A DNA stretch of 64,000 nt from an uncultured Candidatus Saccharibacteria bacterium (lineage in GTDB: Bacteria; Patescibacteriota; Doudnabacteria; UBA920), in contig CAZYMS010000001.1 in the NCBI GenBank assembly GCA_964648985.1, positions 1,215-65,214 of the forward strand, in the 5' to 3' direction. Of this stretch, positions 25,696-39,347 are shown piece by piece. A model generated the notes under the pieces. The model was not told the origin of the DNA and made no database searches. It was given only the letters and a program-made list of their open reading frames with translations. The translations under genes were made by a program, and so were the position numbers. The number at the start of each line of letters is the position of its first letter. Positions within the stretch are counted from its first letter, which is position 1.

Positions 25696-28386
25696 CTAGC
25701 GATAATACTCGGGAGGAATACAGAAGTTACTTGCCCAACCTGCAGAGTACTGCTTTGACAAAGCCTGATCATTGAACACCAAAGTATATATAGCGTATCC
25801 TGGTGCTTTTACCGTATAAGGAAGACCGGCAAATACAAACGTATTCAAGTTCACTGTTGTCTTTAAAGCAATATCGGGAAGCTGCTCGGTTTGGCCAGTC
25901 ATCGTGTTTACATACACACCTGTAACTTTATCCGTGGGCTTAAGTGCATATCCAGCTGGCGCATGCTCAATCTGTCCAACAGCCTGAATCTGGGTATATT
26001 GATTTTGCGTAGGACACAAAGGTATGCCATTTGACGGAATACTTAGGCTAAGCTTTGTTGTTTTAGCACATGGTCCTGGTTCTGGCAGAGTCCGCATTAT
26101 CTTAGTTACCCCACCGTGGATAAATGTGTATGTATTCTGAGTATTTCCAGCACCGAGCTGAATAGAGATAAGGCCGGAACGTATTGCCACTCCTTGGTAG
26201 TTTTCTGCGGTTGAGCTAAGCGTGCTTTCGCCAGCACCGCGGGCAGTATACTGGAATGTATCGGCTCCAGCTCCGCCACTGGCCGAACATATGTACATAA
26301 CTTCGGGTACGACTGGTTCGGCAACAGGGACCTGGTACGCACCGTTCTTGGCCGCGCCCACTAATTTTAGTTCACTAAATGCAAGGGCAGGAACAGTAGT
26401 AGCACCAGGGCTTAATATGGTCGGAGCACTAAAGTACACTCGAACGAAACGACCAAGACCAGATGTCTGCAACCCCACCCACGCACCTGGAGCGGATGCT
26501 GTGGAAGGAAAATGATGTTCACTAAAACCATCATAGTTATTTGAGTTAGCGTAATCATCGTACACACTGATACCATATCGGACATAGGTACCATTCCCTG
26601 TAAGCTGGGGTTTTAGACAAAGCTTGCTAATTTTGAACTGTTCACCTAAGTCCAAAGTTATCCAGTAACTTGAGGTATTATTTGGACCAGACCATACTGT
26701 ATTCTGGTCGCCATCAATCAACTTTTTCGCATTTGCTGTAGTGTCGCCAGCGACATTTGGAATAATGTTTAGTGGGCGTATATAACTATTGGAATCACAA
26801 GACGCATTCGGGTCGAGCGCTACCGGCTGCGGAGGGGTCGGAGCTGAAACAACCTTTACCGAACACTGCGCACTCTTTGCACCTGAATACACCACCACAG
26901 CAGCAGGATATTCATAGGGTGTTAGACCATCGCTGTAGGCAGCAAAGGAAGGGGTGATAAAAGGCGCAGATACATAATTAATTACTGGAAGAGCGTCCAT
27001 AGCAGTCCAACGGTAACTAGACTCTCCGTCACCGCCTAAGGCAGTAAACTTAATAGGTTTACCGGCTTCAACTGTTGGGCTTGCAGAAGCGCAAGATAAC
27101 GAAACTGGGGCAGGGGGGGCAGGATTCACTGCAGGACAAGTTGTAACCCTAAGCACAGATACACCAGTCGGAAGCAATTGACCATTCGCACGGAGCTCTA
27201 ACACGCCGACCTGAGAAAGATTTGTTTCAGCTGCATTGGCCTCAATAAGCTCGTTAAAGTTAAAGCACCAAGAATTAAAGACAGCAAGGGATGGTATGCC
27301 AATAAGTCCATTATCCCCAACCAAGTATACGGTACCGGCCTTGTTCACCAGCTGACCCACCCTCACCGGAGCAACTGGTGCTGGAGGAGCTGTGGCCGTA
27401 ACCACAATAGTACAATTTGCTTGAGTAGTATAATTATCTACTGTAACAGTCTTGTTGCCCGGCGTACTGTAAGTAACTACAAGACTATTTCCACTCCTTA
27501 TAGAAGAACTTGCTCCAATAGCAGACCACGTGTACGTAACGTTCGCTGTGCCAGTAGCGTTAGTGGTAACTGTAGCTGGCTGACCCACACCTACGCTCTG
27601 GGTTCCTGGAGTACAGGAAAGTGTAGCGGGTGCCGGATTCACTGCAGCAACGGTTACCTGACAAGTTGCAGTTTGATTTCCTGAAGCCACTGTCACAGTC
27701 TTACTACCTGCTGATGCGTAGGAAAGCACATAGCTTGCACCGCTGGCAGTAGCAGGAGTTGCTCCGGTTGAAGTCCAAGTATAGCCACCAACACCACCAA
27801 GGGCGGTAAAGGTAACTTGCTTACCGACCTCTGTGGTCTGTGGGTTAGGATTACAAGTGACCCGTGGGACTTCTAAAGGTGCTGGAGCTACAGGCGCACA
27901 GTCGGTCGCAGCATTTAAACTTATGGTAACAGTTGCGGTACCGTCTTTTATTTGTACTGGGGTTTTCACCTGTCTGTTCCCAGATTTTGTTGTCTGTATT
28001 CGAGTTGTAAACGTCTCTATCCTAAACGCATCACCAACTCTCGCAGCCTGAACTGTGTATTTACCAGAACCCGTTCCCTGTGTAAATGGTTCTGTATTAG
28101 CTCCTTTAAAGAGCTTATAGCCTTTATTTCTTCCGATATTCCAATAGAGGGTCGTTTCTGCTGTAGCGCCGTTGCATACAGAAATCGGATTTGGATCCGC
28201 GTAGATCATCTTAGCACTTGCGTCACTCGTATTTGCTGTTGGCTGACCAAAGGCCACCGGCCCCCCAATAGGGGCACCAATAACAACAGATGCGACAAGC
28301 GCAAGACTACCAATTGCAAGAGAGGCTACAACAGGGATACGATGTGAAACCACCCTGCTCACCCATGAGCGTGCATTTTCCGACAT
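25696..28386 (-). CDS. Large exported surface protein with Ig-like repeats and a discoidin (F5/8 type C)-like domain
   Basis: N-terminal TM/signal. N-terminal module paralogous to that of the 20009-22447 protein (PNPI(T/S)VC.GA...TTL.WNI). DGDQNTVW...YWITLDLGEQFKIS discoidin-like block. Confidence 0.6.
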   Translation of the reverse strand: MSENARSWVSRVVSHRIPVVASLAIGSLALVASVVIGAPIGGPVAFGQPTANTSDASAKMIYADPNPISVCNGATAETTLYWNIGRNKGYKLFKGANTEPFTQGTGSGKYTVQAARVGDAFRIETFTTRIQTTKSGNRQVKTPVQIKDGTATVTISLNAATDCAPVAPAPLEVPRVTCNPNPQTTEVGKQVTFTALGGVGGYTWTSTGATPATASGASYVLSYASAGSKTVTVASGNQTATCQVTVAAVNPAPATLSCTPGTQSVGVGQPATVTTNATGTANVTYTWSAIGASSSIRSGNSLVVTYSTPGNKTVTVDNYTTQANCTIVVTATAPPAPVAPVRVGQLVNKAGTVYLVGDNGLIGIPSLAVFNSWCFNFNELIEANAAETNLSQVGVLELRANGQLLPTGVSVLRVTTCPAVNPAPPAPVSLSCASASPTVEAGKPIKFTALGGDGESSYRWTAMDALPVINYVSAPFITPSFAAYSDGLTPYEYPAAVVVYSGAKSAQCSVKVVSAPTPPQPVALDPNASCDSNSYIRPLNIIPNVAGDTTANAKKLIDGDQNTVWSGPNNTSSYWITLDLGEQFKISKLCLKPQLTGNGTYVRYGISVYDDYANSNNYDGFSEHHFPSTASAPGAWVGLQTSGLGRFVRVYFSAPTILSPGATTVPALAFSELKLVGAAKNGAYQVPVAEPVVPEVMYICSASGGAGADTFQYTARGAGESTLSSTAENYQGVAIRSGLISIQLGAGNTQNTYTFIHGGVTKIMRTLPEPGPCAKTTKLSLSIPSNGIPLCPTQNQYTQIQAVGQIEHAPAGYALKPTDKVTGVYVNTMTGQTEQLPDIALKTTVNLNTFVFAGLPYTVKAPGYAIYTLVFNDQALSKQYSAGWASNFCIPPEYYR

Positions 28387-28501
28387 ATTTATTTTTTATT
28401 TAGTTTATTTTTTGTTTCAGTTCCCTATTTTGGGGAATTTGTAACTTTGTAGAACCATTATATCACAATAATCGTCTTACTGCAAGACATACTCATCGCT
28501 T

Positions 28502-28530
28502 TTGACAGAAACATGCTCGATCAATACAAT
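28502..28530 (+). promoter_or_regulatory. Near-consensus sigma70 promoter TTGACA-N17-TACAAT
   Basis: Exact hexamers and 17-nt spacer read from the sequence. Drives an approximately 130-nt leader ending in an intrinsic terminator, upstream of the DUF62-like gene. Confidence 0.45.
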
Positions 28531-28639
28531 ATTATTAATGCACCCACAAACATATTCAGAAATTGCTGCCACTGCGATAGATATGTCCCGCCCTCCACGG
28601 TAAGGCTTTTTGTATGGATGCGACATTTTAGCCCATTGT

Positions 28640-28669
28640 AGCCTTCGCCGTTGCGAAGGCTGTTTTTTT
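28640..28669 (+). terminator. Intrinsic terminator (9-bp stem AGCCTTCGC/GCGAAGGCT, T7) at the end of a transcribed leader
   Basis: Perfect stem, 4-nt loop and T7 run, 37 nt before the start codon at 28707. Confidence 0.6.
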
Positions 28670-28706
28670 CTCTCATTACTTATTTCTAACTACTAATAAC
28701 TATACT

Positions 28707-29519
28707 ATGCTCCCAACATTCTATATTTCTGACTGCTTTGACGATAACGTGCGCGGCCGGTACGCAGCGCGCATAGCCACTACAGTACCACAAGCAGGAC
28801 CAGTGCAATTTATTGGTGCCCAAAACGACTTAGAAGCTGCGGGCAACCTGGTTGATGTGCTCGACGGACTTGAAGGCGCTGAGTCTATTATATTTGTAAA
28901 TGTTGCACCGCGCGGTACAGTCAAAACCATTTGGCCAAACGGTACCCCCTTTGGGTATACAAAGTTCAATAATGCTCACATATTCACTACAGTAGATGGG
29001 TATACGTTGAGCTTACTTAAAAAAATTTCGAAGCAACCAATTACAGTAGCCGTATACGACATCCCCACGGTAGTAAGCTCGCTCACTCCGGATATTGCTT
29101 TACAAAAACACATAGTTAACAGCCAGTTTAGAAGTTTTGACTTCCTTCCACGTATAGCAGGACATGTACTCAACGGCAACACAGTGCCCTCCACGGAATT
29201 CACAGCCATACCGAATGCACCCGCGGCAGTGTGGTGGACCGACAACTTTGGCAATGCAAAACTTACTCTAACAGCAGAAGAAGCACACTGTACCATAGGG
29301 CAAACTGTTCGAGTAAGAATTGGCAATGCAGACCACTCTCTCATCTACTATAATAGATTAAAAGATTTGCCTCATGGCGAGCTTGGTATATACACAGGTA
29401 GCTCCGGGTTTGGGAACTTGCGGTTCCTAGAAATTACCAAACAAAAAGGTGAATCACTCAGCATAGACACCAGCAAGCCTTTAGGAATTATTTCGGGTAA
29501 TCTTATAACATTCATATAA
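28707..29519 (+). CDS. DUF62-like protein (SAM hydroxide adenosyltransferase / halogenase-fold family), divergent
   Basis: The pattern I.SD....D...G......a......v....g resembles the DUF62 N-terminus. C-terminal D.FGN.kltl...G..v.v.ig...f.....Ge.l.Y..S.G.l.l resembles DUF62 C-terminal domain blocks. The canonical N-terminal DITH-type residues are not conserved. Confidence 0.5.
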   Translation: MLPTFYISDCFDDNVRGRYAARIATTVPQAGPVQFIGAQNDLEAAGNLVDVLDGLEGAESIIFVNVAPRGTVKTIWPNGTPFGYTKFNNAHIFTTVDGYTLSLLKKISKQPITVAVYDIPTVVSSLTPDIALQKHIVNSQFRSFDFLPRIAGHVLNGNTVPSTEFTAIPNAPAAVWWTDNFGNAKLTLTAEEAHCTIGQTVRVRIGNADHSLIYYNRLKDLPHGELGIYTGSSGFGNLRFLEITKQKGESLSIDTSKPLGIISGNLITFI

Positions 29520-29571
29520 ATACCACCTACGTCCACTATGCTTGTAGTGGGCGTTTTGGTATGCTACGAAT

Positions 29572-31638
29572 ATGAAATTTGACCTTCAAAGCAAATACAA
29601 ACCTGCTGGTGACCAACCCGGGGCAATTGCCGGTATCCTTAAATCTCTGAAGTCGGGAAACAAACATCAAACCCTTTTAGGTGTCACGGGAAGTGGCAAG
29701 ACTTTCTCCATGGCAAATGTGGTACAAGACCTGCAGCGCCCTACACTGGTCATGTGTCACAACAAAACCCTTGCAGCACAGCTGGCAAGTGAGTTTCAAG
29801 AATTTTTTCCAAATAATGCCGTACATTATTTTGTCTCGTATTACGACTACTATCAGCCAGAAGCGTACATTCCGCGATCTGATACATTTGTAGAAAAAGA
29901 AACCCAGATAAACGAAGAAATAGACAGGCTCCGCAATGCTGCAACACAAAGCCTACTGACCCGAAAAGACGTACTAATAGTTGCGTCTGTTTCATGTATT
30001 TATGGACTTGGCAATCCCGCGAACTACATGGAGCTTTCTATGGAGATTAAACGCGGACAACAGCTCAAGCGAGATAAACTATTACGCAGGCTTACCGATT
30101 TACAATTTCACCGCAATGACTTTGATTTGAAGCGCGGCACCTTTAGGGCACAGGGTGACACCCTGGAAATAGTACTCGCAAGCGAGGACACACTCATTCG
30201 CTTAGAATTTTTTGGTGATGAACTAGAAAAAATTGAACGGCGCGACGTACTCACAGGAGAAACGTTAGAAGTGCTGGATAGCATACACATATTTCCTGCA
30301 AAGCACTTTGTGGCAACTGAAGACGCGATACATACAGCTATAGAAAATATTCGGAACGAACTCCTTGAGCAGCTGGCGGTACTGCGCGGGCAAGGAAAAA
30401 TACTTGAAGCAGCACGTCTTGAGCAACGCACAAACTTTGACTTGGAAATGCTCACCAATACTGGTTTTGTGGCGGGCATAGAGAACTATTCAAGGCATAT
30501 GGATGGTAGGCAAGCTGGCGAGCCGCCTTCTACGTTGATTGATTATTTTCCCGATAACTTTTTACTGTTCATAGACGAGTCACACCAAACTATTCCGCAA
30601 GTTGGCGCCATGTATAATGGCGACCGCGCTCGCAAAACCACACTGGTAGATTACGGTTTTCGATTGCCCAGCGCTATGGACAATCGCCCACTGCAATTCG
30701 CTGAGTTTGAAAAAAAGGTGGATCAAGTTGTATATGTATCTGCCACTCCGGGGCCCTACGAGCTGCGCAAAAGTCTGGAGGAGAACAAGACGATCTCCCG
30801 TCCTGGCTCACAACTCAAGTCTCACGGCTCAAGTCTCGACCTAAAGGGTGTTACAGTGGTAGAGCAGATCATTCGCCCAACAGGACTGGTAGACCCGACC
30901 ATAGAAATAAAACCAATTAAGAACCAAGTAGACGACTTGCTTGAGCAGATTCAGACGCGCGTAAAAAAACATGAGCGCGTATTGGTGACCACCCTCACAA
31001 AGCGCATGGCAGAAGAGTTAACTGAGTATCTCAAAGAGGCAAATGTAAAAGTACAGTATATTCACTCCGAAGTAGATACAATGGAGCGCATAGAAACACT
31101 GCGCGATTTGCGCTTAGGAGTATACGATGTACTAGTTGGTATAAACCTTTTACGTGAGGGATTGGACTTACCGGAAGTTTCCCTGGTGGCAATACTCGAC
31201 GCAGACAAAGAAGGATTTCTTCGAAGTGAAACTGCCTTCATGCAAATAATTGGTCGCGCTGCCCGCCACTTACACGGCCACGTTATTATGTATGCAGACC
31301 GCATGACCGGCTCCATGGATCGCGCCATAAAGGAAACAACCAGACGCCGCGCTCTGCAACAGAAATACAACGAAGATCACGGTATAACACCGAAAGGCAT
31401 ACAAAAAGCCATAGCAGACACACGCATGGCAGGAAGCAAAGTCCCCGAAACACTTCCCGGCAGCAGCATACAAGAAGTAGACCCGGGCAAGCTTAACAAA
31501 GAGGAACTGAAGTACTATTTGGAAGAACTTGAAAACCAAATGGACCTTGCGGCAAAGAATCTTGAGTTCGAACTCGCTGCAACTCTCCGCGATAAAATAA
31601 CTGCAGCAAAAAAGTTATCAAAATTAAAGAAAAAATAA
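29572..31638 (+). CDS. uvrB: Excinuclease ABC subunit B
   Basis: Walker [10 protein letters not shown], beta-hairpin region, [19 protein letters not shown], and a C-terminal UvrC-interaction coiled coil. Full-length collinearity. Confidence 0.95.
30805..30840 (+). repeat. Imperfect 14-nt (2x7) direct repeat x2.5 in frame in uvrB, encoding an approximately 20-aa insertion
   Basis: ggctcacaactcaagt / ctcacggctcaagt / ctcgac. Encodes ...[12 protein letters not shown]..., lying between the conserved YEL and RPTGL blocks, where E. coli and Bacillus UvrB have only about 12 residues. Confidence 0.7.
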
Positions 31639-38678: not shown

Positions 38679-39347
38679 TTACACCAAATCCACGAAGCGT
38701 AAAAACCGCTCCCCCTTTTCTGACGCACAATACAAACCATTAGTACCCACCTCTACTAGCTCGTGGGATAGTAGCGCACTACAGACAGCTTCCCGCTCAA
38801 GCACAACATCTGTAACCAATTCGTCAAAAACCAATGACCCAAGAAACAACTCTTTGGTGCTGCTTCCCAAATTATATAATTTTAAAAGCGCTTGCTTGGT
38901 ACGCTCTACAAGATATAGGTTTAAATACGCAAATTCATATGTTTCTTTGAGTTCTAGTAGTGCACCGAATGCCACGTCCGCATCTTCTAGTTCTTTATTC
39001 TGTTCATCAATTGTTTCCAAGGCACTATTTACCAGCTGTTCTAGTTCTTCTATTTTTTCTACTTCCAGTTTTTGCAACACCTTTTGTACTTTTGCGTATT
39101 CATCAGTTTTAATAACATCTTTTGACTCATCCTGTTTAGACTGCTCGCTACTTACCTCTACATCTCCCTTGCGAAAACTGATAGATATTTTCCGCACTAA
39201 ATCACTTAATGCTTTTCTGCACATTACAATAAAAACAAGCCCAAGAAAGGCTATCACCCCATACCAAGAGGCTATAATCTGGAGGAGCTGGTTTTGTACC
39301 GCGTATTCCATACGCCATATGGTATACGCACGTATACCTATTGTCAA
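38679..39347 (-). CDS. Hypothetical membrane-anchored coiled-coil protein
   Basis: One TM helix followed by an E/K-rich coiled-coil region. Preferred over the overlapping Ser-rich low-complexity plus-strand ORF. Confidence 0.35.
   Translation of the reverse strand: MTIGIRAYTIWRMEYAVQNQLLQIIASWYGVIAFLGLVFIVMCRKALSDLVRKISISFRKGDVEVSSEQSKQDESKDVIKTDEYAKVQKVLQKLEVEKIEELEQLVNSALETIDEQNKELEDADVAFGALLELKETYEFAYLNLYLVERTKQALLKLYNLGSSTKELFLGSLVFDELVTDVVLEREAVCSALLSHELVEVGTNGLYCASEKGERFLRFVDLV

Follow-up and report, generated by a model that had tools for sequence, protein, structure and literature searches.

The locus

The stretch of DNA considered here (the window: 64,000 nucleotides (nt) of contig CAZYMS010000001.1, from an uncultured Candidatus Saccharibacteria bacterium) contains an intergenic region, 28387-28706, that separates two diverging genes. 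The gene on the plus strand encodes a divergent protein of 270 amino acids (aa) with the DUF62 fold, that is, the fold of the S-adenosylmethionine (SAM) hydrolases and halogenases. The DNA in front of this gene carries a promoter, a short open reading frame (ORF) and an intrinsic terminator, and this leader probably belongs to a family of transcription attenuators in which a ribosome reads methionine (Met) codons. The features of the locus are as follows.

25696-28386, minus strand: gene for an 896-aa surface protein with F5/8 type C and PKD domains
28502-28530, plus strand: sigma-70-type promoter, with -35 box TTGACA (28502-28507), 17-nt spacer and -10 box TACAAT (28525-28530); the orthologous leaders have TTGAC(A/G)-N17-TAnnnT
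28538-28603, plus strand: leaderless leader-peptide ORF of 21 codons, MHPQTYSEIAATAIDMSRPPR*, whose ATG follows the -10 box by 7 nt and whose stop codon UAA (28601-28603) lies inside segment 2
28583-28585, plus strand: sole internal Met codon of this ORF, equivalent to the second M of the M-x-M of relatives
28588-28590, plus strand: segment 1 (CCG), which pairs with CGG 28598-28600 to give a 3-bp hairpin 1 (4-7 bp in relatives)
28597-28607, plus strand: segment 2 (ACGGUAAGGCU), the antiterminator strand
28640-28648, plus strand: segment 3 (AGCCUUCGC), the terminator 5' arm, able to pair with segment 2 or segment 4
28653-28669, plus strand: segment 4 (GCGAAGGCU, 28653-28661), then G and a U7 tract (28663-28669), forming the terminator 3' arm and tail
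28670-28706, plus strand: 37-nt spacer that lacks G, a Shine-Dalgarno sequence and promoter-like sites
28707-29519, plus strand: gene for the 270-aa DUF62-like protein (Pfam, family profile and AlphaFold model), followed by uvrB

An earlier note on this DNA had described a promoter of the form TTGACA-N17-TACAAT at 28502-28530, a terminator at 28640-28669 only 37 nt before the gene, and an antiterminator strand near 28600, and all three are indeed present. The promoter matches the consensus at 11 of 12 positions. The terminator consists of the stem AGCCUUCGC/GCGAAGGCU (28640-28661; 9-11 bp, free energy about -16 kcal/mol) with the loop CGUU, followed by G and U7; its end lies 37 nt from the ATG of the gene (28707). 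In the minimum-energy fold, the antiterminator ACGGUAAGGCU at 28597-28607 pairs with the terminator 5' arm through 6+4 bp (AAGGCU with AGCCUU at 28640-28645, and ACGG with CCGU at 28648-28651). Because the gene at 25696-28386 points away on the minus strand, there is no upstream gene to end, and the terminator can only stop transcripts that come from the promoter at 28502-28530. A second promoter for the DUF62-like gene was sought between terminator and gene (28670-28706) and no promoter-like site was found; the gene therefore relies on read-through. The missing Shine-Dalgarno sequence in the same interval is unremarkable, because these sequences are nearly absent in this genome (4 of 40 long ORFs in the window).

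The looser promoter pattern TTGACA-N17-TANNNT occurs four times in the window against 0.73 expected, and none of 100 shuffles reaches four copies. Two of the other three copies lie 7 nt 5' of the ATGs of long genes (2711 and 39311), and the 7-nt spacing between the -10 box and the ATG of the leader ORF is the same as that at long genes of the window. A -10-like box precedes the ATG of several long window genes by 6-7 nt (for example 2675-2713, 39311-39347, 12780, 18246 and 42559), and leaderless mRNAs seem to be the norm in this genome.

Conservation of the leader and its methionine codons

There are more than 500 relatives of the 270-aa protein. Only a few have a named source, and the taxonomic spread of the family rests on these; they come from the Candidate Phyla Radiation (CPR)/Patescibacteria, namely from Saccharibacteria, Doudnabacteria, Kerfeldbacteria, Peregrinibacteria, Wildermuthbacteria and Paceibacterota. 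The loci compared here comprise 14 distinct close ones (47-88% protein identity) and 80 distant ones (39-49%). The unit of promoter, leader and terminator is kept 5' of orthologues at 55-88% protein identity, and every uncut and unrearranged close locus has the promoter, a variable stretch, a hairpin-forming ATG-NNN-ATG-CG... block, the terminator and a G-poor spacer. The first 60-70 nt, or two-thirds, of the leader vary among loci in both sequence and length, and the terminator lies about 40-80 nt before the gene in most leader-bearing loci.

A leaderless short ORF is conserved at the equivalent position in the 14 close loci and in more than 30 distant ones. In the close loci it starts 6-15 nt after the -10 box, ends in or just after the strand able to pair with the terminator, and encodes a peptide that ends in M-x-M-R...; in the alignment of the close leaders the ATG-NNN-ATG block is nearly invariant. 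In the window, ATA at 28577-28579 sits where the first M of M-x-M is ATG in L004, the sister locus. The leader ORFs of the window and of L004 differ at ten nucleotides, eight of which are synonymous third positions. Representative leader peptides, the first three from the close group and the last three from distant loci with a Met run, are:

window: MHPQTYSEIAATAIDMSRPPR
L004: MHPQTYSEIAATAMDMRRPPR (M-D-M)
L002: MQTNYSRPTTRVHMYMRSLPLRRF
L055: MNLQARAQMMMEMMTLENEGAFSHT
L057: MLNQQAKMMMSMMMGMMPQSFSLENFV
L013: MNIFSVQMLAMMMRASKRRGIS

The abundance of Met codons was counted as the presence of a short ORF with at least three (or at least four) ATG codons in a window of seven codons. This was found in 35 of 77 distinct upstream regions for at least three ATG codons and in 30 of 77 for at least four. 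The shuffle control gave 9 of 3850 and 0 of 3850, respectively, and for at least three ATG codons the reverse complements gave 0 of 77 and other windows of the same loci 15 of 1764. Two of these 15 matches are leaders of the same type that precede a two-gene operon ending in the DUF62-like gene (L020 and L022; see below). Met makes up 19.5% of the residues of the distant leaders compared to 1.24% in the enzyme, with a median of five internal Met and a maximum of eight. The Met runs (for example MMMEMM) end 1-3 nt before segment 1, and in 22 of 41 leaders 6-7 nt separate the -10 box from the ATG.

Outside the Met run, codon differences among the leaders are overwhelmingly non-synonymous (174, versus 18 synonymous). 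The conserved features are therefore the codons and the reading frame rather than a functional peptide. On the same ratio, a small functional protein or a precursor peptide was rejected as the product of the ORF.

Four covarying segments

Covariation was measured on MAFFT alignments that had not been fitted to any structure, one of 20 distant leaders (A2) and one of the 14 close leaders of the window clade (A3). Both of the mutually exclusive sets of pairings are supported in both clades:

A2, antiterminator 2:3: 85% of cells paired, 26 double-change cells, 0/500 shuffles, slid controls 45-64%
A2, hairpin 1 (1:2) plus terminator (3:4): 83% of cells paired, 39 double-change cells, 0/500 shuffles
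A3, antiterminator 2:3: 72% of cells paired, 18 double-change cells, 0/500 shuffles
A3, 1:2 plus 3:4: 83% of cells paired, 20 double-change cells, 0/500 shuffles

Helix 1 is 76.5% paired in A3 and has double changes in five of its seven pairs, and the terminator helix is 87-92% paired in A2 and A3, with compensatory changes. The segments can be read off directly after the Met run of the distant locus L050, as CCUU (segment 1), CGAAGGCAC-UUUUUCUC (segment 2), GAGAAAAUG-GCCUUCG (segment 3) and AGGGCCAUUUUC followed by a U tract (segment 4). Across lineages, segments 1-4 vary in concert, from CCUU/AAGG to CCCC/GGGG, CCUCC/GGAGG and CCUGC/GCAGG (the last in L098), as a four-segment attenuator predicts.

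Folding with a modelled ribosome gives a consistent picture. When the ribosome occupies the final Met codon at a time when segment 4 is still to be transcribed, segments 2 and 3 are paired in about 33 of 40 leaders, with a free energy of -10 to -23 kcal/mol and a median z of -2.7. With the ribosome at the stop codon, which in the examined leaders falls within segment 2 or immediately behind it, only the terminator remains.

The downstream protein

The evidence that the downstream gene encodes a DUF62-type protein comes from domain and profile matches and from a structural model. The Pfam C-terminal domain SAM_HAT_C (PF20257) matches the 270-aa protein with 24.5 bits (E 3.4e-5) relative to a cut-off of 25.5 bits, and most relatives of the protein carry a precomputed PF20257 match. 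A family profile matches the (R)-SAM hydrolase MJ1651 and a Thermotoga maritima protein (2zbu) with E 5e-5 to 5e-4 (5e-5 for MJ1651), via the D-x-FGN region. The AlphaFold (AF2) model of the protein scores 90.9 in the predicted local distance difference test and 0.90 in the predicted template modeling (TM) score. In a Foldseek search of the PDB with this model, the top 33 matches are all DUF62 proteins, SAM hydrolases, chlorinases or fluorinases, and they span both domains (about 290 columns). The DUF62 assignment made in the earlier note thus stands at the level of the fold. The invariant residues of the family include Y6, D9, C10, D12, N14, R18, N65, R69 and W76 and, farther along, R142, S143, D179 and N183.

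Known DUF62 enzymes convert SAM into adenosine and L-methionine, and have been discussed as enzymes that remove or repair the inactive SAM epimer (bioRxiv 10.1101/2025.08.29.672840). Judging by the modelled fold, the 270-aa enzyme should catalyze the same reaction. The release of methionine would suit a switch that responds to Met starvation, and from this we infer the link between enzyme and switch.

A probable ribosome-mediated attenuator keyed on methionine codons

We consider it quite probable that the element in front of the DUF62-like gene is a leader-peptide transcription attenuator, mediated by the ribosome and keyed on Met codons; at the level of the family this mechanism is well supported. 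The earlier note had left the choice between a riboswitch and an attenuator. The attenuator half of that proposal holds, given the terminator, the antiterminator and the conservation of the leader 5' of orthologues in both close and distant loci. The ligand-sensing half is not supported, there being no Rfam family and a variable 5' part. An Rfam scan of the leader, which the earlier note had been unable to place in a riboswitch class by eye, gives nothing at threshold; the scan of the window leader and those of 20 loci returned no known riboswitch, only sub-threshold, terminator-driven small RNA models. Covariation across homologous leaders, which had been put forward as a check, came out in favor of both sets of pairings, as described above. 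Because there is no Rfam family, the 5' two-thirds is variable, and a leaderless ORF with Met codons is conserved before the first pairing segment, the sensor is most likely the translating ribosome, and hence the supply of Met-tRNA, rather than an aptamer.

In the proposed mechanism, transcription would start at the A of the ATG (28538) or beside it to give a leaderless mRNA, and a ribosome would translate the 21-codon leader ORF while RNA polymerase advances, in a putative coupling of the two processes. With ample Met-tRNA, the ribosome would reach the stop codon (28601-28603) and mask segment 2, the 3:4 helix would form, and transcription would terminate at the U tract (28663-28669). With scarce Met-tRNA, the ribosome would stall at the Met codon or codons just 5' of segment 1, so that segment 1 would be hidden and segment 2 left free. 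The free segment 2 would then capture segment 3 before segment 4 exists, no terminator would form, and RNA polymerase would read through into the DUF62-like gene. The enzyme, by its fold, would free L-methionine and adenosine from SAM, and induction would thus occur when methionine is short. The computations themselves show the conserved leaderless ORF, its enrichment in Met codons, the four covarying segments and the protein fold, from which translation of the ORF, a response of stalling to Met-tRNA, termination as the outcome and the activity of the enzyme are inferred.

Several observations weigh against this mechanism. About 40% of the orthologous loci have no such leader; among these are loci where the gene comes directly after clpP. 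In about two-thirds of the distant leaders, the free RNA adopts the terminator fold. Met starvation should also lower the level of the initiator, formylmethionyl-tRNA (fMet-tRNA), and with it initiation on the leader ORF; given that the free RNA folds as a terminator, very severe starvation might therefore switch the system off. In the window itself, the leader holds a single internal Met codon, hairpin 1 has only 3 bp, and the antiterminator taken alone is at the level of shuffles (z -0.28). The leaders of the window clade are also richer in arginine (Arg; 14.8%) than in Met (9.1%), which is probably a by-product of their G+C-rich (CGN-rich) stems. On the side of the protein, the N-terminal domain PF01887 was searched by Pfam in the 270-aa sequence with no match even at E <= 1, and an invariant histidine (His) was sought in 30 family members and not found, although invariant aspartate (Asp) and Arg are present. 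The earlier remark that the N-terminal part is non-canonical is thus borne out at the sequence level.

An Asp-Arg-His catalytic triad has been proposed for the Pyrococcus enzyme. With its own invariant set and no invariant His, the 270-aa family may therefore use a chemistry that differs in detail from that of known DUF62 enzymes. The window copy is probably a member of the attenuator family in a weakened version, because of its one internal Met codon, its 3-bp hairpin 1 and its modest antiterminator; the fold energy of the whole window leader is no better than that of shuffles (z -0.91).

Two variants of the model were considered and dropped. That the switch is on by default when no ribosome initiates is unsupported, the free RNA being in the terminator fold in most distant leaders. 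Sensing of Arg codons in the window clade, suggested by the 14.8% Arg, was dismissed in view of the CGN-rich stems and of the location of most Arg codons in segment 2, where stalling favors termination.

Other explanations

Nascent-peptide arrest is known from TnaC, which senses tryptophan, and from SpeFL, which senses ornithine. A Met-rich or M-x-M-R... peptide might likewise sense a small molecule (Met, SAM or adenosine) in the exit tunnel and operate the same RNA switch. The evidence for the ORF, the terminator and the antiterminator fits this scheme equally, and the window clade has a fixed C-terminal motif, M-Y-M-R-x-L-P-L-R-R-F, with two Met only. However, the motif that follows the Met run in the distant clade is encoded by segments 1 and 2, so that RNA pairing already accounts for its conservation. 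The residues before the Met run are not conserved, and the number (3-8) and spacing of the Met codons vary freely, as expected for codon counting and not for a shaped arrest peptide. Nascent-peptide arrest is accordingly judged unlikely.

A different possibility is that the AUG repeats are binding sites for a TRAP-like protein that chooses between antiterminator and terminator, the ORF being incidental. Tandem triplets beside an antiterminator do resemble the (G/U)AG repeats of TRAP (PMC3064811). The AUG repeats of these leaders, however, are always in frame with an ATG at the predicted transcription start, in a frame that stays open and always closes between segments 2 and 3. A repeat-binding protein would need more than the one or two AUG of the window clade, and no candidate protein gene is linked to the locus. 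We regard protein-mediated attenuation as quite unlikely.

The element might also be an independent small gene that gives a free-standing small RNA or protein (such as a precursor peptide for the neighboring enzyme) and has no part in regulating the DUF62-like gene. In favor of this, promoter and terminator are its own, and 100-200 nt of inserted DNA stand between it and the gene in L094, L097, L019 and L049. This explanation is very unlikely, because the peptide outside the Met run shows no purifying selection, the covarying 2:3 pairing would be purposeless in a plain terminator, and no other promoter for the DUF62-like gene is found in the window. In addition, the related loci, about 450 kb in total, have the element nowhere but before the DUF62-like family or before a two-gene operon that ends in it. 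A small RNA with a C-rich loop (CCUCC in the hairpin 1 loop, CCUCC/GGAGG in the terminator) was also considered and dropped; Shine-Dalgarno sequences are rare (4/40 ORFs), and the distant clade has CCUU/AAGG instead.

Finally, a metabolite riboswitch, with an aptamer for SAM, S-adenosylhomocysteine, adenosine or fluoride in the roughly 100 nt before the terminator, would suit the promoter-leader-terminator architecture and the SAM-related gene downstream, but is very unlikely given the lack of an Rfam match at the gathering threshold in the window and 20 loci (permissive scans giving only the sub-threshold models mentioned above), the ordinary fold energy of the leader (z -0.91), the lack of conservation of the 5' 60-70 nt in sequence and length, and the fact that, among unpaired elements, only the run of AUG codons in its open frame is conserved.

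Relation to known systems

Leader-peptide attenuation is textbook knowledge for tryptophan, histidine, phenylalanine, threonine, leucine and isoleucine/valine, and has lately been extended to cysteine (Cys). Methionine genes are known to be controlled by SAM riboswitches, T-boxes or proteins. The CPR/Patescibacteria are hard to culture, and to our knowledge almost nothing is known of their gene control. We know of no methionine leader-peptide attenuator and of no leader-peptide attenuator in CPR bacteria, and a literature search for either found none. We lean, with modest confidence, toward viewing these elements as the first methionine-specific family of leader-peptide attenuators, in which leaderless Met-run ORFs across CPR/Patescibacteria induce a divergent DUF62 enzyme when Met-tRNA is low.

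The classical leaders (trpL, hisL, pheL, thrL, leuL and ilv; Rfam RF00513, RF00514, RF01859, RF00506 and RF00512) also have a short ORF with a cluster of codons for the sensed amino acid. They share the 1:2 pairing, the 2:3 antiterminator and the 3:4 intrinsic terminator, with the position of the ribosome selecting the fold, and the genes that they regulate raise the supply of the sensed amino acid, as the present enzyme would. The present leaders differ in the use of Met codons, in the CPR/Patescibacteria host, in a leaderless ORF where the classical ones are Shine-Dalgarno-led, and in control of a single salvage-type enzyme gene (predicted SAM cleavage) rather than a biosynthetic operon. No Rfam leader model fits them (Phe_leader gives 16.9 bits versus a threshold of 55).

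The closest precedent for a leaderless ORF with a codon run is the set of polycysteine attenuators of mycobacteria (the "Cys ribulon"), in which stalling on a Cys run in a leaderless short ORF relieves repression of genes of Cys metabolism (Canestrari et al., bioRxiv 10.1101/834739). There, too, the ORF begins at the transcription start and contains a run of codons for one amino acid. That mechanism is translational, with the opening of a structure that hides a ribosome-binding site, whereas the present leaders carry an intrinsic terminator with a U tract; the amino acid and hosts also differ (Cys and Actinobacteria there, Met and CPR here). SAM riboswitches (S-box and others) and Met-specific T-boxes likewise cause premature termination in the leaders of Met/SAM genes. 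In those systems, the RNA senses SAM or uncharged tRNA-Met, while the present leaders have no aptamer or T-box signature and would use the translation of Met codons as the sensor.

The protein has the same two-domain fold as the DUF62 SAM hydroxide adenosyltransferases/(R)-SAM hydrolases (PH0463, MJ1651), SalL and FlA (Foldseek E 5e-13 to 2e-8, TM score 0.60-0.67) and shares with known members the C-terminal D-x-FGN block. It differs from them in its low identity (12-18%), an N-domain that Pfam does not recognize, its own invariant set and the absence of an invariant His. Known members are discussed in terms of SAM-epimer repair, while the present leader suggests a role in supplying methionine.

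A Met-codon attenuator would fill the methionine gap among leader-peptide systems, and it raises the puzzle that methionine is needed to initiate the sensor ORF itself. If the mechanism is correct, it provides direct sequence-level evidence that CPR/Patescibacteria rely on coupled transcription-translation and leaderless translation in regulation, and that these reduced symbionts use SAM, their own or scavenged, as a methionine reserve. For the long-debated DUF62 family, it would mean a physiological role, the supply of methionine. It would also give a testable label to a large CPR protein family that is unannotated so far, as induced by Met limitation and likely to free Met from SAM, and the combination of a leaderless short ORF carrying a codon run with a terminator offers a search key for regulons in uncultured bacteria.

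Variation among the related loci

A search for other Met-run leaders, and so for a wider regulon, in the window and in all of the loci found only those of L020 (1696-2432) and L022 (1701-2429). Here a Met-run leader (MQHQAQNMMAMMMK...) and a terminator stand before a gene whose product is a small membrane protein rich in Cys (about 150 aa). This gene runs into the start of the DUF62-like gene and would be a second one under the same control. In L009-L012 and L014, which form one clade, the DUF62-like gene lies 1-11 nt after clpP, without a leader of its own.

In L013 (145-175), L029 (2458-2490), L036 (2397-2428), L038 (322-350) and L052 (2444-2490), the terminator 3' arm contains GGAGG 8-12 nt before the ATG of the gene. 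The hairpin would therefore also mask the ribosome-binding site, making a dual transcriptional and translational control possible in these five loci.

In L094 (2335-2500), L097 (about 1270-1470), L019 (2260-2485) and L049 (2330-2485), the terminator and the DUF62-like gene are set apart by inserts of 100-200 nt. These contain long palindromes, rich in GGAGG/CCTCC or of the form AGAGGTCT..., and resemble small mobile repeats. L092 (about 1700-1760) encodes the same protein (P0010) as L091, and in its leader the 5' half has given way to the end of a glycosyltransferase gene, with the breakpoint inside the leader ORF; this reflects either a rearrangement or a chimeric assembly.

Neighboring features

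The region 3' of the DUF62-like gene contains the following feature.

29529-29554, plus strand: hairpin followed by a weak T tail, in the interval from the DUF62-like gene to uvrB (29572-31638)

This hairpin may be the 3' end of the regulated unit. In most distant loci there is no same-strand gene within 250 nt 3' of the DUF62-like gene, which thus stands alone. Over the whole window, Rfam at the gathering threshold and ARAGORN found no RNA family, no tRNA and no transfer-messenger RNA.

On the other side of the leader, the window and L004 have the gene for the surface protein of about 900 aa (PKD/F5-8 type C) between a GH1 glycosidase gene and the leader. In most relatives (those compared being L001, L002, L087, L088, L090 and L096), GH1 comes immediately before the leader on the same strand, so that the arrangement in the window and L004 reflects an insertion or rearrangement immediately 5' of the leader promoter. 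An inverted repeat, GTTCCC-TATTTT-GGGGAA(T), is present in the 5' region of the divergent gene for the 896-aa protein, at 28414-28452 of the window (3708-3745 in L004). It may be an element of the 5' untranslated region of the surface-protein gene. The repeat gives weak Rfam matches (E 3-8) to repeats of the CRISPR (clustered regularly interspaced short palindromic repeat) kind, and a similar T-rich hairpin sequence is present in L098 and L099.

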